NCBI GenBank assembly: GCA_963737655.1
Contig: CAVTTN010000002.1
Location: forward strand, 2,848,001-2,912,000
From: an uncultured Planctomycetota bacterium
Lineage (GTDB): Bacteria > Planctomycetota > Planctomycetia > Isosphaerales > Isosphaeraceae
Reading direction: 5' to 3'
Length of the DNA stretch: 64,000 bases
Shown piece after piece: positions 10,079-34,988 of this stretch. The position numbers were made by a program, and so were the translations under genes. The notes beneath the pieces are model-generated. The model was not told where the DNA came from and did no database searches. It was given only the letters and a program-made list of their open reading frames with translations. Each line of letters opens with the position of its first letter. Position 1 is the stretch's first letter.

Positions 10079-11560
10079 TCAGGCCACCCCTTCGAGGATC
10101 TTCTTGACGATGTTCGTGGTGCTCAGGCCGTCGAGCCTCGGGCAGATGGCCACGCGACCGCCGTACGACTCGACGAAGTCGCGGCCCACGACCGTCTCGG
10201 GCGTGTAGTCGCCGCCCTTGACCAGCACGTCGGGCTTCAGCGCCTCGATCAGGGCCATCGGCGTGTCGTCGTCGAAAAGGACGACCAGATCGATGAACGG
10301 GTAGAGCGAGAGCATGTACGACCGTTCGTCCTCGGGGACGAGCGGCCGGTTCGGGCCCTTCCCTCGGCTCACGGAGGCGTCGGTGTTCAGGCCGAGGACG
10401 AGGAAATCCCCCTGCGATCGGGCGTACTGGAGCAGGTAGGCGTGGCCGTAGTGGAGGATGTCGAAGCATCCATTGGTGAAGACGACCTTGCCCCCCTCGC
10501 GGCGGACGTCCTCGGCCCTCTCGATGGCCCGAGGGAGGTCCACGACCTTGTTCGACCGGCCGGAGGAGGCGGCGACCTCGTCGCGGAGGTGCCCGATCGA
10601 GATCGTCCCCACGCCGTACTGGCGGACGACCGCTCGCCCGGCGAGGTTCGCCAGCGCGCACGACGCCTCCAGGTCCAGGCCGGAGGCCAGGGCGATGGCC
10701 AGGGTGGCCGCCACGGCGTCGCCGGCCCCGGTCACGTCGTAGACCTGCACGGGAATCGTCGGGATGTGGGCGTGGTCCAGCCCTTCGGCGGTCTGGCGGA
10801 ACAGGGAGATCCCCTTGGCGTCGCGGGTGATCGCCAGGGCGGCCCCCCGGGTCTGTTCGATCAGCCGGGCCGCCGCGTCGGCGAGCGAAGCGTCGTCGGT
10901 GATCGGCCTCTCCGCGGCGACCTCGGCCTCCTTCACGTTGGGGGTCAGGACGGTCACCCCGGCATATCGCGAATAATCCCGGCCGTTGGGATCGACGACG
11001 ACCGGGATGCCTCGCCGCCTCGCCCCGGCCAGGGCGGCCTCGATCACCTCGGGGGCGAGGACCCCCTTGCCGTAATCTTCCAGGATCACGGCATCGGCGG
11101 TGCTCGCGGCGGAGAACGCGGCCTCGGCCAGGAGCTTCAGGGCCGTCGGATGAGGCCGACCCCGGTCTTCGCGATCCACACGCAACAACTGCTGATTCTG
11201 GGCGATGAACCGGGTCTTGACCGTCGTCCGTCGGGTCGGGTCGGCGACGAAATGAGGCGAGATCGCCTGGGACCGGGCGACCAGGTCGCGGAAGTCGGCG
11301 GCGTCGGCGTCGTCCCCGACCAGGCCGACCAGGGCGACCCGGGAACCCAGGCCCACGACCTTGTGGGCCACGTTCGCCGCCCCGCCGAGCATGCTCGCCT
11401 CGTCCTGGACTTCCAGGACCTGGATGGGCGCCTCGGGGCTGAGCCGGCCCGCCCGGCCTCGTTCATAGCGGTCGAGCATCACGTCGCCGATCACGGCCAC
11501 GGTCACGGCGCGGAGCCGGGGGATCAGTGCCTCGAGTCCAGGAGGAGCGATGGCGGACAC
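10079..11560 (-). CDS. hldE: Bifunctional D-glycero-beta-D-manno-heptose-7-phosphate kinase / heptose-1-phosphate adenylyltransferase
   Basis: GDVMLD, SPEAP, GGAANVA and DVTGAGD (PfkB kinase), plus FTNGCFDILHYGH and LVKGGDY (cytidylyltransferase-like domain). Confidence 0.95.
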   Translation of the reverse strand: MSAIAPPGLEALIPRLRAVTVAVIGDVMLDRYERGRAGRLSPEAPIQVLEVQDEASMLGGAANVAHKVVGLGSRVALVGLVGDDADAADFRDLVARSQAISPHFVADPTRRTTVKTRFIAQNQQLLRVDREDRGRPHPTALKLLAEAAFSAASTADAVILEDYGKGVLAPEVIEAALAGARRRGIPVVVDPNGRDYSRYAGVTVLTPNVKEAEVAAERPITDDASLADAAARLIEQTRGAALAITRDAKGISLFRQTAEGLDHAHIPTIPVQVYDVTGAGDAVAATLAIALASGLDLEASCALANLAGRAVVRQYGVGTISIGHLRDEVAASSGRSNKVVDLPRAIERAEDVRREGGKVVFTNGCFDILHYGHAYLLQYARSQGDFLVLGLNTDASVSRGKGPNRPLVPEDERSYMLSLYPFIDLVVLFDDDTPMALIEALKPDVLVKGGDYTPETVVGRDFVESYGGRVAICPRLDGLSTTNIVKKILEGVA

Positions 11561-11562
11561 GG

Positions 11563-12510
11563 TCAGGCCCTCCCCTCGGCCTTCAGGAACCGGGCGATCC
11601 CCTCTTCCAGGGTCGCGAACGGGGCCGAGTAGCCGAGCCCTCGGAGCCGGCCGATGTTCGACCGGGTAAAGCTCTGGTACTTGCCCCGGAGGTTCTCCGG
11701 GAACGGGACGTATTCGAGGGTGCCCTTGCCGAGCTGGGCGATCAGGGTCCGGGCGATGTCGTTGAACGACCGATCGATCCCGGTCCCCACGTTGACGATC
11801 GCCACCTTCGGCGGGCCCGAGGCGAAGAATCGATTGACCGCCACGATGTCCCCCACGAAGACGAAATCCCGCCTCTGCTCGCCGGGTCCATAGCCGTCGG
11901 TCCCCTCGAACAGGCGGGCCTTGCCGGTCGAGAGGATCTGGTTGGTGAGCTGGTGGACCATCGACGACATCTTCCCCTTATACGTCTCGTTCGGCCCGTA
12001 GACGTTGAAGTATCTCAGGCCCGCGACCGTACTCTTCAGCGAATCCCCGAGGCGGCGGACGTAGCGGTCAAACTGGAGCTTCGAATACGCGTAGACATTC
12101 AAGGGGGCCTCGCACCGAGGCTCCTCCACGCACTCGGTCGTGGCCCCGTAGACCGAGCCGCTGGACGCATAGACGAACGGCGATCCGTTCCCCAGGCTCC
12201 AGTGGAGCAGCTCCTTGGAGAACGTGTAATTGTTGTCCATCATGAACCGGCCGTCGGCCTCGGTCGTATCGGCGCAGGCCCCCTGGTGATACACGGCCGA
12301 GGGGATCGGCAGGCCGGCTCCCCCGCGTTGGAGCCGTTCGCGGAAGTCGCGGCTATCCAGGAAGTCGGCGATGGAGGAGTCGCGGAGGTTGAGGAACTTG
12401 TCTCCCAGGGTCAGGTCGTCGACGGCCAGGATGTCGTCGATCCCGTCCTCGTTGAGCCGGCGGACCAGGTTGCTGCCGATGAATCCGGCGGCCCCGGTGA
12501 CGATGTGCAT
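11563..12510 (-). CDS. hldD: ADP-L-glycero-D-manno-heptose 6-epimerase
   Basis: IVTGAAGFIGSNL, HQGACADTTE, YASS, PLNVYAYSK, LRYFNVYGP, QRRDFV. Confidence 0.95.
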   Translation of the reverse strand: MHIVTGAAGFIGSNLVRRLNEDGIDDILAVDDLTLGDKFLNLRDSSIADFLDSRDFRERLQRGGAGLPIPSAVYHQGACADTTEADGRFMMDNNYTFSKELLHWSLGNGSPFVYASSGSVYGATTECVEEPRCEAPLNVYAYSKLQFDRYVRRLGDSLKSTVAGLRYFNVYGPNETYKGKMSSMVHQLTNQILSTGKARLFEGTDGYGPGEQRRDFVFVGDIVAVNRFFASGPPKVAIVNVGTGIDRSFNDIARTLIAQLGKGTLEYVPFPENLRGKYQSFTRSNIGRLRGLGYSAPFATLEEGIARFLKAEGRA

Positions 12511-12553
12511 CGAAGCGCTCCTCTGGGCGGATCGGGGCGTCTGGGGCGAGTGT

Positions 12554-13609
12554 TCAGGCGATCGCGACCGGAGGGAGCCAGCCGGCGACGGCGGTCGCCA
12601 GGGTCTCCACGTCGATCGATTGCATGCAGTGGGGGCGGACCTCGCAGTCCTTCAGGTAACAGCAACGGCATCCCAGGGGGGTCACCACCTTCTCGCCCTT
12701 CCCGTAGGTCTCGATCTCGTCGGCTGAGGTCGGGCCATAGAAGGAAATCGTCGGCCGATCCACGGCCACGGCCAGGTGGAGGGCCAGCGAGTCGCTCGTG
12801 ACCAGGAGCGAGCACCGCTCGATCAGGGCGGCGAATTCCAGGATCGAGAGTCCCGAAGGTCCGGCCACGATCGCCCCGGGGCGATCGGCCTCGGTCACGA
12901 TCGAGGAATTCCGGTCCGCCTCGGCCTCCCCGCCCAGGATCACCACCCGGACCCCGCGTTCGTCGTGGAGACGCCGGGCCAGCAGTGCCGTCTGATCCTG
13001 CCCCCAGCTCTTGAACCGCCACCGGCCGCCGGCCCCGGTATTCATCCCCACCAGGGGCGTTTCGGCATCCCAACCCCGGCTCGCCGCCCAGGACGACGCG
13101 ACCTCTCGGTGAGCCTCGCCGACCGGAAGGCTCGTCCGACCGACCGGCCCAGGCAGGCCCAGGCACTGATAGAGCAAGGCCGCGACGGTCTTCGTGTTGA
13201 CTTTTTTCAGGGCGTTGGCCGCCTCAAGGCCCCCGCGAGATGCCGGGCGGAGGATCCCCATCCCGAACCAGGGTTCCACATCCTCGGTGTACAGACGATT
13301 GCCATCCGGGCCGAGGAATCCGCCGCTGATCTTCGGAGACTCCAGGGAGCTCGCCAGCTCGCACTCGTCCCGCCCGTCGTCCAGAGAGATCACCCAGTCA
13401 TACGCCCGGGAGCGCCATGGGGCGTCGGCCGGGTCGTCCAGGCGGACGGCTTCGGCCACTCCGCGAAGGCCGTGGACCAGCTCCAGGGCGCCCGGGGCGG
13501 TGATCCAGGTCAATTCCATCTCCGGATCGAGCCGGAAAAGGCCGGGCAGGATCGCCGTGGTTCGGACCACGTCCCCCAGGGCACCGGTCTTGATCAGGGC
13601 GACTCTCAT
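12554..13609 (-). CDS. Glycosyltransferase family 9 (heptosyltransferase-like)
   Basis: IKTGALGDVVRT and LVTSDSLALHLAVAV..SFYGPT; the ATG at 13609 overlaps the upstream gene's stop (ATGA). Confidence 0.9.
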   Translation of the reverse strand: MRVALIKTGALGDVVRTTAILPGLFRLDPEMELTWITAPGALELVHGLRGVAEAVRLDDPADAPWRSRAYDWVISLDDGRDECELASSLESPKISGGFLGPDGNRLYTEDVEPWFGMGILRPASRGGLEAANALKKVNTKTVAALLYQCLGLPGPVGRTSLPVGEAHREVASSWAASRGWDAETPLVGMNTGAGGRWRFKSWGQDQTALLARRLHDERGVRVVILGGEAEADRNSSIVTEADRPGAIVAGPSGLSILEFAALIERCSLLVTSDSLALHLAVAVDRPTISFYGPTSADEIETYGKGEKVVTPLGCRCCYLKDCEVRPHCMQSIDVETLATAVAGWLPPVAIA

Positions 13610-14769
13610 CGGGACCACGCCTCATTCATCTCGGCTGCGACGATCGTCCAATCATACCGCTCCAGGACGGCCTGCCGCCCCTTCCGGGCGATCTCGGCTC
13701 GCTCCTCGGCCGAGCCGAGGACCCGCTCCACGGCGGAGGCGAAGTCCTTCGCCCCTTCGGCGATCACGATCCCCTCGCCCTCGGCCAGCTCCAGCCCTTC
13801 GGGGCCCTTGGGGGTCGTGACGACCAGCCTCTGATACGCCAGGGCCTCGAGGATCTTGCCCCGGGTCCCGCTGCCATCCAGCACGGGCACCAGCGCCACG
13901 GCATGCTCCTCGTACAGGGGCCGGAGGTCCCGGGGCGAATCCTCGAACCGGATCCCCTCCCGGGCCAACCTCGCTCGAAGCGGCTCGCCCGCCCCGGACC
14001 CGGCCACGGTGATGGAAACGCCGGGAGGAAGCCGAGGAGCCACCTCGTCCAGGAACCACAGCAGGCCCATCACGTTCGGATGATAGGACAGGTTCCCCAC
14101 GAGCAGCAACTTCGGCACGCTCGGGACGGGTGTCGGGGCGATCCCTCGGACATCCGCTCCATTCCGGGTGGTCGTCCATCGGGCCGCCGGGATCATCGCC
14201 GAATACCGCTGGCGATCCCTCTCCGAGTACGCGAAGGCGATGTCCGCGATCGTCGCGGCCCGCCTCTCGAAGTGGCGGAGGGCCTGCACCTGGATCGCCT
14301 TGAAGAACTCCCGGGCAAGCGGGACCGGGGACGACCCGATCGCGGAATACAGGTCGCTCTCCACGTTGTGAAACGTGACCGATTCCTTCGCTCCCGACCG
14401 CTGGCCCCGGACCCCCGGCAGGTAGTAGGCCATCCGAAGCTCCTCGGCGTGGATCACGTCGGGCCGCCACTCGGCCACGACTTCATCGACCCGACGGACC
14501 AGCGCCTGGCTCCTCTGGTTCTGATGGAAGGAGCGCATCGCCCCGAACGCCATTCGGACCGGCCGCGGTTGACGCCCCGGAGGGAGAAACTCCGCCGAGA
14601 CCCCCGGGACGGCCGCCGGTTCCTCGGACTCCGAGGCCAGGTCCAGGCCGAGGAGCCGCAGATCGACCCCCGACAACCGTCCGACCGCGGGCCAAAGATG
14701 GTGATTCCGCACCCGGGTCCCAGTGACCGGAGGATTGGGCCGATCACCGATGATCGCGAGGACTTTCAT
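13606..14769 (-). CDS. Glycosyltransferase family 4 (GT-B)
   Basis: Start MKVLAIIG; FHNVESD, GNLSYHPN, GSGTRGKILEALAY, ERYDW. Confidence 0.88.
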   Translation of the reverse strand: MKVLAIIGDRPNPPVTGTRVRNHHLWPAVGRLSGVDLRLLGLDLASESEEPAAVPGVSAEFLPPGRQPRPVRMAFGAMRSFHQNQRSQALVRRVDEVVAEWRPDVIHAEELRMAYYLPGVRGQRSGAKESVTFHNVESDLYSAIGSSPVPLAREFFKAIQVQALRHFERRAATIADIAFAYSERDRQRYSAMIPAARWTTTRNGADVRGIAPTPVPSVPKLLLVGNLSYHPNVMGLLWFLDEVAPRLPPGVSITVAGSGAGEPLRARLAREGIRFEDSPRDLRPLYEEHAVALVPVLDGSGTRGKILEALAYQRLVVTTPKGPEGLELAEGEGIVIAEGAKDFASAVERVLGSAEERAEIARKGRQAVLERYDWTIVAAEMNEAWSR

Positions 14770-25172: not shown

Positions 25173-26354
25173 ATGATCTATAATGAAATAGCGTTCTACG
25201 TACTATTCCTGCTCCCGTGCGTCGTGCTGTTTCATGCCACGGGGCCGCGGGTCCGGCCCTGGGTCATCACGTCGTTCGGGGTGGGGTTTTTTGTCTATTA
25301 CGGTTATTACGCATTCGGCGGGGTGTGGGGCGCCGCGTGTGTTCTGATCTTCGTCTGGGAGTTGCTGGTTTCTCGGCTGTATCGCAAGGGATCGCGATGG
25401 TGCCTGGTCGGCGTGGTCCAGGCGGTGCTCATCCTGTCGGTCTTCAAATACGGGACGTTCCTGGGCGGGCTTTGGACCGACGTGACGGGCCTGGCGATGC
25501 TGGCGAACCTGGGACCGGTCCCTCGTTTGATCCTCCCGCTGGGGATCAGCTTCTTCACGTTCGAGTTCATCCACTTCGCCGTGGACCGGTATCGGGGTGA
25601 CATCGAGGAGGCGACCCTGGCCGAGTATTCGGCGTTCATCTTCTTCTTCCCGACGATGGTGGCCGGCCCGATCAAGAGGTATCAGGAGTTCGTCCCCAAG
25701 CTGGCCTCCGCCCGGCTCGACCCGGACCTGGTCTCCCGGGGGATCACGCGAATCCTCGTGGGGCTGGCGAAGAAATCCGTCCTGGCAGACACCTTCACGC
25801 TCTGGTCGGACAAGCTCAACACCTCGGCTCTGGTCACCGCCAGCCCCCCGACGGTCCTGGGCTGGATCCTGGCCTACGGGATGAAGATCTACTTCGACTT
25901 CTCGGGCTACTCGGACATCGCGATCGGCTGTGGCTACCTCTTCGGCATCCCCGTGCCGGAGAACTTCCGCTGGCCGTACGCGAGCCGGAACATCGCCGAG
26001 TTCTGGAGGCGCTGGCACATCTCGCTCGGCCGATGGATTTTTGATTACGTCTACAAGCCCCTGGGCGGCTCCAGGCGAGGCGAGGGCCGCACGGCGTTCA
26101 ACCTCCTGGTGGCGTTCGGGGTCTCGGGCCTGTGGCACGGGGCGGCGTACAACTTCATCGCCTGGGGCCTCTGGCACGGGATCTTGATGGTGATCTACCG
26201 GACGTGGTCGCGCCTCGCCGACCGGTTGGGCTGGAGGCTGCCGGCGGCCCTCGGGCTGACCCTCACGTTCGTGACGGTGAACCTGGGCTGGGGACTATTC
26301 GCGATGGACATGCCGCGAGTGCTGATCGCGGCCCGGAGGATCCTGGGACGATGA
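25173..26354 (+). CDS. MBOAT family O-acyltransferase (DltB/AlgI-like, DltB-sized)
   Basis: LPLGISFFTF, FFPTMVAGPI, YFDFSGYSDIAIG, ENFxxPY, EFWRRWHISL and catalytic GLWHGA; 393 aa with no AlgI-type C-terminal FxYxxF tail. Confidence 0.93.
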   Translation: MIYNEIAFYVLFLLPCVVLFHATGPRVRPWVITSFGVGFFVYYGYYAFGGVWGAACVLIFVWELLVSRLYRKGSRWCLVGVVQAVLILSVFKYGTFLGGLWTDVTGLAMLANLGPVPRLILPLGISFFTFEFIHFAVDRYRGDIEEATLAEYSAFIFFFPTMVAGPIKRYQEFVPKLASARLDPDLVSRGITRILVGLAKKSVLADTFTLWSDKLNTSALVTASPPTVLGWILAYGMKIYFDFSGYSDIAIGCGYLFGIPVPENFRWPYASRNIAEFWRRWHISLGRWIFDYVYKPLGGSRRGEGRTAFNLLVAFGVSGLWHGAAYNFIAWGLWHGILMVIYRTWSRLADRLGWRLPAALGLTLTFVTVNLGWGLFAMDMPRVLIAARRILGR

Positions 26355-26536
26355 CCTCTCTCATCACGCGGATCGGGACGACCCTGGAAGTCCTCTCGGG
26401 GTCGCGTCCGTGGACCGATCGTATGGCCTCGAGCCTCGCGGTCCGGGCATTCTGGGGGTGGTGGTGGGCGACGTTGCTCGTCCTGGTCCTCCTGTTCAGC
26501 CGAGGCAATTCGAAATTCGTGTACATCGACTTTTAA
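26351..26536 (+). CDS. DltX-like single-pass micropeptide (61 aa) ending in FVYIDF
   Basis: ATG overlaps the MBOAT stop (ATGA). Translation: MTSLITRIGTTLEVLSGSRPWTDRMASSLAVRAFWGWWWATLLVLVLLFSRGNSKFVYIDF-stop, i.e. a TM helix plus a terminal F-x-Y-x-x-F motif. Confidence 0.8.
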   Translation: MTSLITRIGTTLEVLSGSRPWTDRMASSLAVRAFWGWWWATLLVLVLLFSRGNSKFVYIDF

Positions 26537-26547
26537 GAGAATGCGTC

Positions 26548-27597
26548 ATGAAGCCCGTCGTCCTGCAGATCCTCATCGCCGCCCTGACCCTCGCGGGATA
26601 TGACCGCGCGCTGGCCTGGCACGCCTCGCGGACGAACCTCCACCTCCGCAAGATCGTGGAGGCCGGATCGCGAGCCGAAGATGCCCTGGTGTTCGTGGGG
26701 GATTCGCGGGCCCAGGCCGCCCTGGACCTCCCGGAGCTGCGGAGGGCCCTGCGGGCCCAGGGCGCCCCGGACGACGTGGTGAACCTCTCGCTCAACTCCA
26801 CCCGGATCGCCTGGCATTCGCTGATCGCCCGCGAGCAGGCCCGCCGATGGCCCAGGACGCGGGGCGTGGTCCTGTGCTTCGGCATCAATCGGATGCTCGA
26901 GGACCATCCCGATCCCGACCCCGGCCAGTGGACGGGGTTCGACAGCGTCCTGGTCGACGTGATCGGCCCCGGGGAGCTGGACGAGTTCATGCCAGGAGGC
27001 CTGATCCGCCACCCGATCTGGTCGCTCAAATATGGCCTCGGCCGCTGCCTGGCGATGGTTCGCTATCGATCGAACCTCGCCCAGGGCGTGAGCAACCGCC
27101 TGAACGCCCTGGCCAACCCGCCGAGGGCCCGCACGAACGCCGAGCGGTTCGGCTACCTCGAGGACATGATCGAGTTGCAGAGGCAGAGCCGGGCCGAGTC
27201 CCAGGCCCTCCTCGTGCAGCGACGGACGGGCGACGGATGGAGGCTCAACCCCTGGTTCGACGAGCTTCGTCGCGAGCTGAAAGCCCGGGAAATCCCCCTC
27301 TATCTGGTCGAGCTCCCGGTCATCCAGGAGGACCGGAACCAGGTCACCCAGAGGCCGGAATGCCGGGAGTTCCGGGCCTGGCTGACCCGCCTCGTCGAGG
27401 CCGACGGGGGCCGATACATCGACCTCGGCCAGCTCCCGGGGGTGACCGACGACCACTTCCCCGACGAGGTCCACATGGACGAATCCGCCGCCCGGATCGT
27501 CTCCCAGGCGATCGGCGAGGCGCTCGCCAGGATCCTCAAGGCACCTCGCGATCCGGGGTCCGGGGCCGACTCGAAACGCCCCGGGACCCCGGACTAG
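26548..27597 (+). CDS. Membrane-anchored SGNH-fold protein (DltD/AlgJ-like acyltransferase)
   Basis: N-terminal anchor; block I FVGDSR; C-terminal FPDEVH (DxxH); starts 11 nt after the micropeptide. Confidence 0.75.
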   Translation: MKPVVLQILIAALTLAGYDRALAWHASRTNLHLRKIVEAGSRAEDALVFVGDSRAQAALDLPELRRALRAQGAPDDVVNLSLNSTRIAWHSLIAREQARRWPRTRGVVLCFGINRMLEDHPDPDPGQWTGFDSVLVDVIGPGELDEFMPGGLIRHPIWSLKYGLGRCLAMVRYRSNLAQGVSNRLNALANPPRARTNAERFGYLEDMIELQRQSRAESQALLVQRRTGDGWRLNPWFDELRRELKAREIPLYLVELPVIQEDRNQVTQRPECREFRAWLTRLVEADGGRYIDLGQLPGVTDDHFPDEVHMDESAARIVSQAIGEALARILKAPRDPGSGADSKRPGTPD

Positions 27598-27603
27598 CCC
27601 GCC

Positions 27604-29794
<2,191 letters not shown>

Positions 29795-30112
29795 CGAGGG
29801 GAATCGGTGCGAACCGCTCCGTCCGGGGTTGCGAATCGGGTTTCGCGGCCTCATTCTCGTCCAGTGTATACCGGCGAGAATCGTCCAGCCTTTCTTTATC
29901 ATACTTTCCCGAGGTTGTCAGGTTCCCTGGGGGGATCGGGCCGGGTCCTCTCCTTCTCGTCCCGCCCCGAGTCGGGGGACGGGCGATCGAACCCGGCAGG
30001 CTCCCTCGGCTCGCGATTTGCGAGCACTGCAAGATCCGGGCCGACCGACCGCGGGCGAACGATCGCGCCCCGGGTCGCCGCCGAGTCGATTCCAGGGGGG
30101 GCTTCGCTCGCC

Positions 30113-31765
30113 ATGGCCGAAGATGGTCTCTGGTTCAAGGATGCCGTGTTCTACGAGCTCCACGTCCGCTCGTTCCAGGACGGCAACGGCGACGGCATCG
30201 GCGACTTCCGCGGGCTGACCAGCCGCCTGGATTACCTCCGAGACCTGGGCGTCGATTGCATCTGGCTCCTGCCCTTCTTCGAGTCGCCCCTGCGCGATGA
30301 CGGGTACGACATCGCCGACTACCGGAAGATCCACCCCAATTACGGGACCATGGACGACTTCCAGGAGTTCCTCGACGCCGCCCACGCCCGGGGGCTCCGC
30401 GTGATCGCGGACCTCGTCGATGAATCACACCAGCGACCAGCACCCCTGGTTCAAGCGGGCCGTCGAGTCGCCCCCGGGGTCGATCGAGCGCGACTATTAC
30501 GTCTGGAGCGACACCGACCAGAGGTACAAGGACGCCCGGATCATCTTCCTCGACACCGAGAGGTCCAACTGGTCCTGGCACCCCGTCGCCCAGGCGTATT
30601 ACTGGCACCGCTTCTACTCCCAGCAGCCGGACCTGAACTACGACAATCCCCAGGTCCGCGAGGCGATGCTCGACAACTTCCGCTTCTGGCTGGACAAGGG
30701 CCTGGACGGCTTCCGCTGCGACGCCGTCCCCTACCTCTTCGAACGCGAGGGCACCAACTGCGAGAACCTGCCGGAGACCCACCTCTATCTCAAGGAACTC
30801 CGCGCCGTGATCGATCGCGAGTACTCCGGCCGGGTCCTCCTGGCCGAGGCCAACCAGTGGCCCAGCGACGTGAGGGCCTACTTCGGCGACGGCGACGAGT
30901 TCCACATGGCGTTCCACTTCCCCTTGATGCCCCGCTTGTTCATGGCCTTGCGCAAGGAAGACCGCTCGCCGATCGTCGAGATCCTCGCCCGGACCCCCGC
31001 CATCCCCGACTCCTGCCAGTGGGGCATCTTCCTCCGCAATCACGACGAATTGACGTTGGAGATGGTCACCGACGAAGAACGCGACTACATGTATCACGAA
31101 TACGCCAAAGACCGGAAGATGCGCATCAACCTCGGCATCCGTCGGCGGCTCGCGCCCCTGATGGACAACCGCAGGAGGCGGATCGAGCTGATGAACGGCC
31201 TGCTGATGAGCCTGCCCGGCAGCCCGATCCTGTATTACGGCGACGAGATCGGCATGGGCGATAACATCTACCTGGGCGATCGCGACGGCGTCCGGACCCC
31301 CATGCAGTGGAGCATCGACCGCAACGGCGGGTTCTCCCGGTGCGACCCGGCCGCGCTCACGTCCCCCGCGATCCAGGACCCGATCTACGGCTACCTCGCC
31401 GTGAACGTCGAGAGCCAGGAGAGGCAGAATTCCTCGCTCCTGAACTGGATGAAATCGCTGATCGCCACCCGGAAGAAATACCCCGCCTGGGCCGAGGGAC
31501 GACCGAGTTCGTCGCGAGCGAGAACCGTTCCGTCCTGGCGTTCGTCAGGAAGACCGAGAGCCAGACGGTCCTCTGCGTGAACAACCTCTCGCAGCACGCC
31601 CAGCCCGTGGCGCTGGACCTCTCGGCCTACCTCGGCTGCGTGCCCGTCGAGATGGGCGGCGACCAGAAGTTCCCTCCGATCGGCCGGGCCCCCTATTTCC
31701 TCAGCCTCGGCGGCTACGACTTCTTCTGGTTCCAGCTCGAGGGCGCGCCGGAAGTCGTCGTGTAG
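30113..31765 (+). CDS. treS: Trehalose synthase (maltose alpha-D-glucosyltransferase); frameshifts near 30419 and 31487
   Basis: [89 protein letters not shown]. Confidence 0.9.
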
Positions 31766-31940
31766 GGTGCATGAACTACGCCAGCTTCCACCTCGCGGGC
31801 GATCGAGCAACACCGCTCGCCGGGCCGTTTCGAGACCGATCCAGGTCGTGGGAAATCCCGGGGCCGTCGTCGGTTGAATCCTCGGTGCATTTCATCCACC
31901 CTACGCCGAGAATGCCTCCTTTCCCCCAGGAGTCGCCGAA

Positions 31941-34900
31941 GTGTCCGATCCGTCCTCGATGGAAGCCCTCTTCGACGCCGAAGCCCGCTCGCTGGCCGAG
32001 TCCCCGCCCCGCCGCCCGGGCTCGACGTACCGCCTCCAGCTCCACAAGGGCTTCCGGCTCGAAGATGCCCGCGCCATCGTGCCCTACCTCCGCGACCTCG
32101 GCGTGACCGACCTGTACCTGTCGCCCTACCTCGACGCCCGACCCGGCTCGACCCACGGCTACGACGTCTTCGACCACTCGCGGATCAATCCCGAGGTGGG
32201 CACCGACGAGGACCACGCCCGGCTCGTGGCCGATCTCGCCCTCGTCGGCATGGGCCGCGTCCTGGACGTGGTCCCCAATCACATGGGCATCAACGGGCCG
32301 AATCGCTACTGGCTGGACGTCCTGGAGATGGGGCCGTCGTCCGAGTTCGCCCCGTTCTTCGACATCGACTGGCACCCCGTGAAGGACGAGCTGGATGGAC
32401 GGGTCCTCCTGCCGATCCTGGAGGACCAGTACGGCAAGGTCCTCGAAGACGGCAAGCTCGTCCTGGAGCGCCGGGGCGGCGAGTTCGTCCTCCAGTACCA
32501 CGAGCGGACGCTCCCCCTGGCGCCCAAGTCCTATTCCTCGATCCTCGGCCGGGCGTCGCGAGAGATCATCTCGCGGTTCGACCCGGACGATCCCCACGTC
32601 CTGGAATTCCTGAGCGTCTGGGCCTCGGCCGAGAACATGCCGGATCGGGACGCGACCCGACCCGAAGACGTCGCCCACCGCCACCGGGAGCGCCGGGTGC
32701 TCCACCGGCGAATCCGCCGCCTCTGCGAGGAGGCGCCCGAGATCTGCTCGTTGATCGACGCCGGCGTGGCCGGCTTCGCGGGCGTCCCGGGCGAGCCCTC
32801 CACGTTCGACCCGCTGCACCGGCTCCTGGAGGAGCAGGCCTACCGCCTGGCCTTCTGGCGGGTGGCCGCCCAGGAAATCAATTATCGACGATTTTTCGAT
32901 ATCAACGACCTCGCCGGCCTGAGGACCGAAGACCCCCGCGTCTTCGAAGCGGTCCACGCGCTGATCTTCCGATGGATGGCCGAGGGGGGCGTCACCGGGC
33001 TCCGGATCGACCACCCCGACGGCCTCGCCGACCCACTGGGCTATTTCCAGAGGCTCCAGGAGGCCGCGTTCCTCATCCGCTGCCGGGCCCGGTTCGATGC
33101 CGGGCACGGCGACCCGGCCGACTGGGTCGAGATCGCCCGGGGGCTTCGGAGACGGTTCCGCGAGGCCGCCCGCGAGCCGAATTCGCCCCTGGCCCGGCCC
33201 TCGCCGATCGTGGCCGAAAAGATCCTGAGCCGGGGCGAGGCCCTCCCCGACGGCTGGCCGATCGATGGCACGGTTGGATACGAATATCTCAACGTGATCA
33301 ATGGCCTGTTCATCGATCCCGCGGCCGAGGCGACCCTCGGCGCGACCTACGCCGAGTTCACCGGCGACCGCGAGCCGTTCGCCGAGGTCCTGTACCACGC
33401 CAAGGAGCGGATCGCCAGGGATTCCCTGGTCAGCGAGGTCAACATGCTCGCCCGCCAGCTCAACCGCGTGAGCGAGTTCGACCGCCGGAGCCGGGACTTC
33501 ACCCTGAACGACCTGCGCGTCGGGATCCGCGAAGTGATCGCTTGCTTTCCCGTCTATCGGACGTACCTCCAGCCCGGGCAGCCGCCGTCGGACCGCGATC
33601 GGGGCTACATCGAGCAGGCCGTGGCCCGGGCCCGGAAGAGGAACCCGGGGGTGGACGGCTCGTTGTTCGACTTCCTCCGCTCGGTCCTTTTGCTCGAAGG
33701 CGGAGGGGGCGCGTCGATCGAGGGGCGGTCGCTCGCCGAGACGTTCGTGAAGCGGTTCCAGCAGACCACCGGCCCGATGCAGGCCAAGGGGCTGGAAGAC
33801 ACCGCGTTCTATCGCCAGTACCCCCTGGTCTCGATCAACGAGGTCGGCGCCGACCCGTCGCGGTTCGGGATCTCGCCCTCGGCCTTCCACGCGATGAACG
33901 CCGACCGCCTGGCCCACTGGCCGGGGTCGCTCGGGACTACCGCCACCCACGACACCAAGCGAGGCGAGGACGCGAGGATCCGGATCGACGCCCTCTCCGA
34001 GTTCCCCGAGCGATGGAAGGCCCACCTCGCCCGATGGCAACGGATCAACGCGAGGAAGAAGGTCGAGGTCCGCGGGGCCCCGGCGCCCGACGCTCGCGAG
34101 GAATACCTGCTCTACCAGGCCCTGGTCGGCGGCTGGCCGATCGGCGGCCCCGACGACGCCTCGCCGGAGGGCTTCAGCGATCGCGTGAGCGGCTTCTTCC
34201 TGAAGGCCGTCCGCGAGGCCAAGCTCAACACGAGCTGGTCGGACCCCGAGCCCGACTACGTCCAGGCCCTCGACGCCTTCGTCAAGGCGATCCTCGACGG
34301 ACCCGACGCCTCGGTCTTCATCCGCGACTTCCTCTCGTTCCAGAGGGCGGTCGGGCGAGTCGGGATGGTTCATTCGCTCGCGCAAACGCTCCTGAAGATC
34401 GCCTCGCCCGGCGTGCCGGACGTGTATCAGGGATGCGAACTCTGGGACTTCAGCTTCGTCGATCCCGACAACCGCCGGCCCGTGGATTTCGAGGGCCGGA
34501 GGCGGCTCCTGGAGGGCCTCGACGACGCGATCCGAGCCGGGAAGCCACGCGCCGAAATCGCCCGAGCACTCTTCGCGGCCCCCGAGGACGGCGCGATCAA
34601 GCTCCTGGTCGTCGCGACGGCCCTGCGTCACCGCCACGACAACCAGGCCCTGTATCTGCTCGGCAATTACCGGCCCCTCGACGTCGAGGGAGAGCACCGA
34701 ACGAGGGTCGTCGCCTTCGGCCGCCACCGCGAGGGCAAGGCCGTGATCGTGGCCTCGCCCCGGCTCGTCGCCCCCCTGATGGGCGACGACGCCCTGGCCA
34801 TGCCCCTGGGCCGGGAGGTCTGGAATGACACCCGATTGACACTCCCCGAAGGCCCCATCCCCAGGCTCTGGCGAGACCTCCTGACCGATCGAATCCACGA

Positions 34901-34988
34901 GATCGACGAATCGGCCGGCGCCCCGCCCTCGCTCGCCGTCGGCGACCTGTTCCGAGACGTCCCGCTCGCCTTCCTGTCGGCCGAGTGA
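31941..34988 (+). CDS. treY: Malto-oligosyltrehalose synthase
   Basis: STYRLQ, GSTHGYDV, DVVPNHM, INYRRFFDIN, GLRIDHPDGL, AEKIL, AKGLEDTAFY, ATHDTKRGED, PGVPDVYQG, VDPDNRRPVD. Confidence 0.95.
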   Translation: MSDPSSMEALFDAEARSLAESPPRRPGSTYRLQLHKGFRLEDARAIVPYLRDLGVTDLYLSPYLDARPGSTHGYDVFDHSRINPEVGTDEDHARLVADLALVGMGRVLDVVPNHMGINGPNRYWLDVLEMGPSSEFAPFFDIDWHPVKDELDGRVLLPILEDQYGKVLEDGKLVLERRGGEFVLQYHERTLPLAPKSYSSILGRASREIISRFDPDDPHVLEFLSVWASAENMPDRDATRPEDVAHRHRERRVLHRRIRRLCEEAPEICSLIDAGVAGFAGVPGEPSTFDPLHRLLEEQAYRLAFWRVAAQEINYRRFFDINDLAGLRTEDPRVFEAVHALIFRWMAEGGVTGLRIDHPDGLADPLGYFQRLQEAAFLIRCRARFDAGHGDPADWVEIARGLRRRFREAAREPNSPLARPSPIVAEKILSRGEALPDGWPIDGTVGYEYLNVINGLFIDPAAEATLGATYAEFTGDREPFAEVLYHAKERIARDSLVSEVNMLARQLNRVSEFDRRSRDFTLNDLRVGIREVIACFPVYRTYLQPGQPPSDRDRGYIEQAVARARKRNPGVDGSLFDFLRSVLLLEGGGGASIEGRSLAETFVKRFQQTTGPMQAKGLEDTAFYRQYPLVSINEVGADPSRFGISPSAFHAMNADRLAHWPGSLGTTATHDTKRGEDARIRIDALSEFPERWKAHLARWQRINARKKVEVRGAPAPDAREEYLLYQALVGGWPIGGPDDASPEGFSDRVSGFFLKAVREAKLNTSWSDPEPDYVQALDAFVKAILDGPDASVFIRDFLSFQRAVGRVGMVHSLAQTLLKIASPGVPDVYQGCELWDFSFVDPDNRRPVDFEGRRRLLEGLDDAIRAGKPRAEIARALFAAPEDGAIKLLVVATALRHRHDNQALYLLGNYRPLDVEGEHRTRVVAFGRHREGKAVIVASPRLVAPLMGDDALAMPLGREVWNDTRLTLPEGPIPRLWRDLLTDRIHEIDESAGAPPSLAVGDLFRDVPLAFLSAE

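Follow-up and report, generated by a model that had tools for sequence, protein, structure and literature searches.

Introduction

The best-described relatives of the system reported here are divided, in the consulted parts of PMC12148441, into "carrier plus microprotein" (the Dlt pathway) and "acyl-CoA plus fused tail" (all others), where acyl-CoA stands for acyl-coenzyme A. In the DltB-DltX-DltD machinery of Bacillota (operon dltXABCD), an MBOAT (membrane-bound O-acyltransferase) with a catalytic His and without a C-terminal tail works with a free single-pass microprotein ending in FxYxxF and with an SGNH protein having a Ser-Asp-His triad; the carrier DltC docks on helix HC of DltB (Met302, Val305, Ile306, Met309 and Lys312) and on Arg317, as given in PMC11035591. 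PatA/PatB (peptidoglycan), AlgI/J/F/X (alginate), WssH, CcsH and PatA1/B1 likewise combine an MBOAT with an SGNH protein and an FxYxxF motif and need no carrier; the same parts of PMC12148441 describe the non-Dlt pathways as devoid of a DltX-like microprotein, with the motif fused to the MBOAT instead, and the fused PatA as taking acetyl-CoA directly. PMC5541007 records dltX from 807 Firmicutes genomes and also describes Dickeya and Pectobacterium as having dlt genes, and DltX is treated only in Gram-positive teichoic-acid work in the portions of PMC13653941 and PMC13721041 consulted. Here, we describe a three-gene cassette (MBOAT, micropeptide and SGNH protein) in a 64,000-nucleotide stretch of an uncultured Planctomycetota bacterium of the Isosphaeraceae (GenBank assembly GCA_963737655.1, contig CAVTTN010000002.1, positions 2,848,001 to 2,912,000, hereafter the window). 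The cassette is a real, conserved and unnamed variant of the MBOAT-Tyr-SGNH relay that is a member of neither the Dlt nor the PatA/AlgI systems, being Dlt-like in layout and likely PatA/AlgI-like in its donor. No description of this split family was found in the open-access literature.

We propose with moderate confidence that the cassette is a three-part transmembrane O-acylation relay fed by acyl-CoA and acting on a cell-surface glycan. The MBOAT would take up the acyl group, probably acetyl from acetyl-CoA (the form of its loop and the gene content suggest an acyl-CoA donor and no dedicated carrier), and would place it on Tyr58 of the peptide, by analogy with DltB/DltX/DltD and PatA/PatB; the SGNH protein may then move it from Tyr58 via its Ser53 to the glycan. 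This order of steps is proposed because of the Dlt/PatA mechanism published in PMC12148441 and the predicted complex of the MBOAT with the peptide. The relay chemistry itself is already known from other systems, and the new aspect is the split, carrier-free layout.

Results and Discussion

Organization of the cassette

The three genes lie on the plus strand. The first (25173..26354) encodes a 393-aa MBOAT-family membrane O-acyltransferase that ends in RRILGR without a C-terminal FxYxxF, and the second (26351..26536) encodes a 61-aa micropeptide ending in KFVYIDF, whose start overlaps the MBOAT stop in ATGA. After a gap of 11 nt follows the gene of a 349-aa SGNH-fold protein (26548..27597). These coordinates agree with the original prediction, which had described three coupled genes with this overlap and gap, a tail-less MBOAT of this length and a GDS..DxxH protein; GDS53 and D306-x-x-H309 are both present in the third translation. 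The automatic open reading frame (ORF) list opens the peptide frame at a GTG at 26132 (134 aa), which had been called a wrong start, and the lengths of the homologues (about 60 aa, median 61) back the start at 26351 instead. The micropeptide consists of an N-terminal ExLGG, a single hydrophobic helix (about residues 31-49) and the C-terminal hexapeptide F56-V-Y58-I-D-F61 (26516..26533, plus strand; Tyr58 codon 26522-26524), the putative acyl shuttle. A six-frame scan of the 7.6-Mb genome returned just two F-x-Y-x-x-F-stop frames, this peptide and the tail of a fused second MBOAT, so the motif in the cassette exceeds chance. That the three genes exist and are coupled, that their catalytic residues and the split are conserved, and that the MBOAT and SGNH folds are present is established, as detailed below.

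Occurrence and conservation of the split layout

When related loci were collected by their MBOAT, a separate motif-ending ORF was found downstream of the MBOAT in 38 of 43 genome loci, and three of the five loci without the peptide stop at, or shortly past, the MBOAT end. All 41 MBOAT frames that were scored at related loci end without FxYxxF. Thirteen of the 43 loci are from Paenibacillus and are mutually non-independent; a further 12 metagenome loci share the split layout, some of them from other lineages. By record title, the split loci belong to Planctomycetota, Myxococcota, Bdellovibrionota, Verrucomicrobiota, Acidobacteriota, Armatimonadota, Abditibacteriota, Cyanobacteriota, Pseudomonadota and Bacillota. 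On these sequence records, the split cassette occurs discontinuously in about ten phyla, with Paenibacillus among its hosts, and is no planctomycete speciality. It is rare and patchy within its own phylum: a full-length SGNH orthologue occurs in 3 of 121 genomes of the host family, and a split-type MBOAT in none of 300 other sampled genomes of the phylum, where the four matches are of the fused type. The loci on viral contigs were all fused types (23/23), and the best 30 of 185 plasmid records are at most 43% identical.

The peptide is conserved as a protein. An HMMER library search with a 17-row peptide profile returned 197 unnamed clusters at 50% identity (E up to 0.001); among the 150 listed, lengths are 33-138 aa and 147 carry the C-terminal F-x-Y-x-x-F. 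The F, Y and F of the hexapeptide are invariant in 17 of 17 aligned peptides. Compared position by position within the codon, the nucleotides of the 17 corresponding genes show identities of 0.60/0.72/0.41, and each of the three stop codons occurs among these genes, a pattern that indicates constraint at the protein level. The parts of the cassette are named in databases as "MBOAT family", "hypothetical protein" and "DUF1574".

The original prediction had allowed that the peptide might not be conserved beside MBOAT homologues, or that a sequencing error in the MBOAT stop had split an ordinary fused AlgI. The assembly does hold several frameshifts, near the cassette in glgX and treS and also in the second MBOAT. 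However, the split shared by 38 of 43 independent assemblies and the lack of a tail in 41 of 41 MBOAT frames contradict such an error, the fused MBOATs form a separate branch (100/100) that leaves out the window protein, and no long fusion is present among the 150 listed matches of the peptide profile. We regard the chance of an assembly error as negligible.

The 13 Paenibacillus loci (in L024-L043) have the order MBOAT-SGNH-peptide and a peptide ending in FIYMNF. In the Paenibacillus genomes G121 and G125, no other tail-less MBOAT of DltB size was found, and the MBOAT of the split cassette is the sole intact MBOAT of G125. Two contigs assigned to the archaeal Nanoarchaeia/Woesearchaeota (L021:1137-3089 and L023:291-2111) have an MBOAT of the family behind a probable SGNH gene.

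Fold of the MBOAT and its predicted pairing with the peptide

The window MBOAT matches Pfam MBOAT PF03062 with 105 bits (cut-off 27, E 5.8e-30) and reaches 191 bits with the DltB profile TIGR04091, for which the cut-off is 375. His322, in the GLWHG sequence (26136..26138, plus strand) that aligns with the GxWHG of DltB, is the probable catalytic base and is kept without exception in the 25 aligned sequences. The structural model has a mean predicted local distance difference test (pLDDT) of 90.2, and its top Foldseek match is DltB (6bug; E 6e-15, template modelling [TM] score 0.76). The MBOAT and the peptide are predicted to bind: the complex scored 0.72, against 0.00 for the best of three controls. 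Of 157 solved complexes, 116 attain this mark, as do 2 of 215 mismatched pairs. The runs concur in at least 97% of contacts with a partner pLDDT of at least 76. The predicted interface takes in MBOAT residues 321-323 and peptide residues 56-61, and the ExLGG region of the peptide contacts MBOAT residues 189-196.

The SGNH protein

G51, S53, D306 and H309 are invariant in 16 of 16 homologues of the third protein, with Ser53, Asp306 and His309 as the putative triad. Its Pfam GDSL_2 match lies just under the threshold (30 vs 32.9 bits), and its N-terminus is a hydrophobic helix, either an anchor or a signal peptide. The model (pLDDT 87.8) ranks DltD first in Foldseek (E 4e-5, TM 0.40, 11% identity), whereas the DltD profile PF04914 has no match in the host genome. 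VIA-align places a GDSL esterase first (Z 13.2, root-mean-square deviation [rmsd] 3.3, 173 residues aligned) and gives Z 10.5, rmsd 6.0 and 245 aligned residues for DltD; small SGNH enzymes align structurally over a shorter length than DltD does (245-254 residues), and the protein has an insert of DltD size. One of the fold matches is PatB (Z 12.5), no better than generic GDSL esterases, and the Atlas groups the protein with DUF1574/LB_356 clusters. The model and the invariant Ser-Asp-His triad agree that the third protein, whose SGNH fold had been predicted, belongs to the SGNH superfamily.

The esterase matches allow a reading in which the peptide serves structure or regulation only, with the SGNH protein acting as a deacylating esterase. 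The best Z-scores are indeed to GDSL esterases, 6 of 16 homologues have Gly at the block II position, and PMC11035591 raises a regulatory role for the helices of DltX and DltD. We consider this very improbable: the Tyr at exactly position -4 from a free C-terminal Phe recurs in the 147 of 150 listed homologues, as in proven acyl-Tyr shuttles, and the motif residues share the predicted interface with the region of the catalytic His.

Comparison with Dlt and fused systems

The original prediction had seen here a split, Dlt-style layout in a diderm without DltA or DltC nearby, and this was borne out. A free peptide accompanies the MBOAT and the SGNH protein, and a LpxC match above the cut-off marks the host as a diderm. 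No carrier, adenylation or FkbH match was found within the 64-kb window. In the host genome (87.7% complete), the best DltA score is 275 against a cut-off of 560, and the DltC, DltD and TagF profiles gave no match while the controls were positive. With DltB-DltX-DltD, the cassette has in common the tail-less MBOAT with its His, the free single-pass FxYxxF microprotein and the Ser-Asp-His SGNH protein, and it differs by the lack of DltA, DltC, DltD and TagF matches, by its gene order and by the lack of a DltC-docking extension. The Gram-negative Dickeya and Pectobacterium are further diderms with machinery of the Dlt type, for which lipopolysaccharide (LPS) is the supposed target, but according to the description in PMC5541007 their dlt(X)ABCD operons include a ligase and a carrier, and the cassette has neither.

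The peptide had been called DltX-like, which held for its hexapeptide and topology; no homology to DltX was detected beyond the motif. DltX ends in FIYN(E/D/Q)F, whereas the cassette peptide ends in F(I/V)Y(I/V)DF and has the additional N-terminal ExLGG. Pfam and NCBIfam gave no match for the window peptide, and none of 17 peptides matched the DltX family PF12459, which three true DltX matched at E 1e-14 to 1e-18. The profile match of the peptide to DltX was 69%, fell to 3% after removal of the hexapeptide and was 18% with the 17-row alignment; that to the fused tails was 54% and fell below 1% without the hexapeptide. Weak leads to DltX are one Bacillota peptide with 17.6 bits (cut-off 25) and an Atlas DltX cluster (0.87).

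The MBOAT is nearer in sequence to the fused types, with a median identity of 38% to these, 31% to DltB (range 28-33%) and 50% within its own family, and tree distances of 3.28 to fused types and 4.98 to DltB; the fused reference set consists of uncharacterised genome and metagenome proteins picked by similarity to the query and holds no characterised AlgI or PatA. Fused MBOATs carry the motif on two extra C-terminal helices, whereas the cassette has a separate gene for it and an MBOAT 60-100 aa shorter.

Fused and split layouts coexist in the host genome. The second MBOAT (C2:3135385-3136969) is fused, ends in FIYFQF and is frameshifted; it is followed by two DUF1574-like SGNH genes, the whole locus spanning C2:3135385-3139243 (L127:5385-9241).

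The donor-side loop and the acyl source

The segment of the window MBOAT that aligns with helix HC of DltB is shorter and reads PLGGSR, within the donor-side loop YVYKPLGGSR (residues 292-301; 26046..26075, plus strand), which has the short, fused AlgI-type form. Between the His and GxWHG, 31 of 33 split and 19 of 22 fused MBOATs have a spacer of 36 residues, compared with 43 residues in 8 of 9 DltB; PLGG[SN] is present in the same proportions of split (31/33) and fused (19/22) MBOATs and in none of the 9 DltB. The cassette MBOAT has the spacer and loop of the sampled fused MBOATs. Across the window and the 56 related loci, no adenylation enzyme was found, and a carrier adjoins the cassette in just three cases. 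The original prediction had left the donor as acyl-CoA or a remote carrier; the short PLGGSR loop favours the first of these. Because the MBOAT is nearer in sequence to the fused AlgI type and lacks the carrier-docking extension of DltB, and because PatA takes acetyl-CoA (PMC12148441), acyl-CoA is likely the best reading of the donor for the window cassette.

The three cases with an adjacent carrier are L007, L009 and L133. FkbH loads glyceryl groups on carriers, and each of these loci encodes FkbH and a carrier (L007:1035-6337, L009:372-4702 and L133:1118-5717), with a TylF-type methyltransferase added in L007. L007 and L009, with the carrier inside the cassette, are the two exceptions to the 36-residue spacer; L133 has a changed spacer of 38 residues and lies on another branch, as sister to the carrier-less L128. 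By gene content, the three are candidates for a glyceryl-transferring version. In a tally of 42 rows, made without fused rows, four loci with short flanks and two loci lacking a matched loop, 29 rows have no carrier and a short loop, 11 a carrier and a changed loop, 2 (L185 and L039) a carrier and a short loop, and none a changed loop without a carrier.

The same relay could instead draw on a remotely encoded acyl- or aminoacyl-carrier protein, either the housekeeping acyl carrier protein or the product of a remote ligase and carrier, which would make a dispersed Dlt-like pathway. It would fit the first rank of DltD in Foldseek and the longer alignment to DltD, the approximately unbiased (AU) test that does not reject a single clade of the family and DltB (p 0.67), and the recruitment of FkbH and a carrier by the three relatives above. 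The host genome moreover holds several free-standing carrier-protein candidates and a stand-alone amino-acid adenylation enzyme of 525 aa (C2:5543757-5545271; L126:7731-9305), either of which could act remotely. However, the DltC-docking extension is missing from the window MBOAT, the loop is changed in 3 of 3 members with an adjacent carrier and short in 29 of 29 scored members without one, and neither DltA nor DltC passes the cut-off in the genome. We judge a remote carrier unlikely, and acyl-CoA remains the preferred donor.

Of all proteins in the genome, that adenylation enzyme is the most DltA-like; its gene adjoins that of a GDSL protein, a gene with weak likeness to lipid A acyltransferases is close by, and no carrier match was found near it. 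Three real FkbH sequences, used as tblastn queries, found no FkbH in the host genome. A distant split lineage (L138:419-5322 and L190:3730-7268) combines a carrier, an LnmK-type acyltransferase/decarboxylase, a probable SGNH protein and a tail-less MBOAT with a spacer of 43 residues; its peptide has 36 aa and ends in FIYRGF, and the peptide start sequence occurs twice in L138, about 1.7 kb apart. In L185:2229-6924, the neighbours of a tail-less MBOAT are two carrier proteins and the product of an acetate-CoA-ligase-like gene; this locus ends 61 nt past the MBOAT stop. L013:1313-4099 encodes a 929-aa fusion of FkbH, carrier and thioesterase, 4 kb upstream of the cassette of that locus and on the opposite strand; the MBOAT there has the short loop.

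The acceptor

The acceptor is the weakest step of the proposal; it may be a surface polysaccharide (exopolysaccharide [EPS], capsule or O-antigen) and may vary between hosts. The patchy distribution and the monoderm hosts argue against a role specific to LPS and for a variable surface polysaccharide. Glycosyltransferases were found near the cassette in L001, L004, L014, L016, L030, L037, L124, L125, L132, L135 and L148, one related cassette adjoins a flippase and one an O-antigen ligase/polymerase-type gene; the neighbour scans took chosen ORFs (91, mostly from a list of 157, and 42, mostly from a list of 90).

A relay with the same acetyl-CoA donor could act on peptidoglycan, as a split equivalent of PatA/PatB. 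Such an acceptor would account for stand-alone cassettes in monoderm and diderm hosts, and many loci are indeed stand-alone in hosts that include Bacillota and diderm phyla; PatB is also among the SGNH fold matches. The PatB match, however, is no higher than those to generic GDSL esterases, the patchiness (3/121 and 0/300) better suits a modifier of a variable surface glycan, and the frequent glycosyltransferase neighbours, with the flippase and the O-antigen-type gene, point the same way. There is to our mind a small chance that peptidoglycan is the acceptor, and a surface polysaccharide is preferred.

Several observations weigh against the relay fed by acyl-CoA as a whole. The original prediction expected the peptide Tyr near the His of GLWHG in a complex model; the motif residues and MBOAT 321-323 do fall in the interface, but the Tyr58-His322 pair is absent from the 25 best-defined contacts listed. 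Split-gene halves can also score by likeness to solved structures, and DltB is solved. Just 5 of 16 SGNH homologues have Ser at the block II position tied to transferase activity. On the donor side, L185 keeps the short-loop PLGGNR in spite of its two carriers and ligase, the loop is unchanged in four Paenibacillus loci with a carrier 3.6 kb upstream, and the independent pairs comparing carrier with loop (3 in the same direction, 0 opposite, 1 without difference) give p=0.25; the link between carrier gain and loop remodelling is suggestive and not significant. The remote carrier candidates and adenylation enzyme of the host belong here too. On the acceptor side, no glycan genes adjoin the cassette in the window and many relatives. 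The motif peptide was not found in either of the two archaeal loci, one of which has a weak SGNH match.

Evolution and implications of the split family

In a careful, tail-trimmed tree of 43 rows, the fused MBOATs (100/100), DltB (100/100, on a long branch) and the window subfamily (100/100) are each recovered, and the fused branch excludes the window MBOAT at 100/100. The tail-less lineages between these branches form a polytomy, the broad family being one group in 32% of bootstraps. The trees are unrooted; the first of them, a quick tree, leaves out 17 of 81 rows as short or near-duplicate. In a larger quick tree, for which 30 of 85 new fused rows were sampled at random and earlier rows thinned, the tail-less L185 nests inside the fused branch. 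The tree constrained to keep the family and DltB as one clade lies 14.4 log-likelihood units above the quick free tree, the 88-row quick search having missed a better tree. On these trees, no fused gene in the sample gave rise to the split family by recent fission, and the family may link the two known MBOAT types.

Tentatively, and with somewhat less than even confidence, we suggest that the cassette represents a third architecture, split like Dlt and fed by acyl-CoA like PatA/AlgI. It would be one of a broad array of split lineages, each with an MBOAT and a microprotein, that are placed between DltB and the one fused branch, and so may preserve the ancestral state of both. Its donor would be switchable by one cytoplasmic loop, and two independent gains of FkbH and a carrier (with a predicted glyceryl donor) would have come with a longer loop, paralleling the DltC-docking helix of DltB. 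The family uncouples two traits, having a free shuttle peptide without carrier genes in about ten phyla, and is a counter-example to the statement on microprotein-free non-Dlt pathways in the consulted parts of PMC12148441. A role that can be tested is thereby proposed for the unnamed microproteins (197 clusters) and for SGNH proteins of the DUF1574-like kind. Closely related members that differ in having a carrier (L133 vs L128; L007/L009 vs L005) allow the choice between CoA and carrier to be tested, and cultured hosts such as Archangium minus, Cohnella boryungensis and several Paenibacillus make the acceptor findable.

Surroundings of the cassette in the window

The cassette sits between a divergent DUF2891 gene and convergent glgX, treS and treY. 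No sigma-70-like promoter was found at the cassette, and terminator-like matches are at chance level. A look-up of sequencing runs gave none for the cassette, an outcome with no bearing on its expression. Its GC content is near that of the surroundings (0.59-0.68), giving no compositional sign of recent transfer. The glgX, treS and treY cluster spans 27604-34988, with glgX and treS fragmented, likely by assembly indels. On the minus strand at 10082-14553, 10.6 kb upstream of the cassette, lie genes for an HldE-like protein, an ADP-heptose epimerase, a GT9 heptosyltransferase and GT4 proteins.

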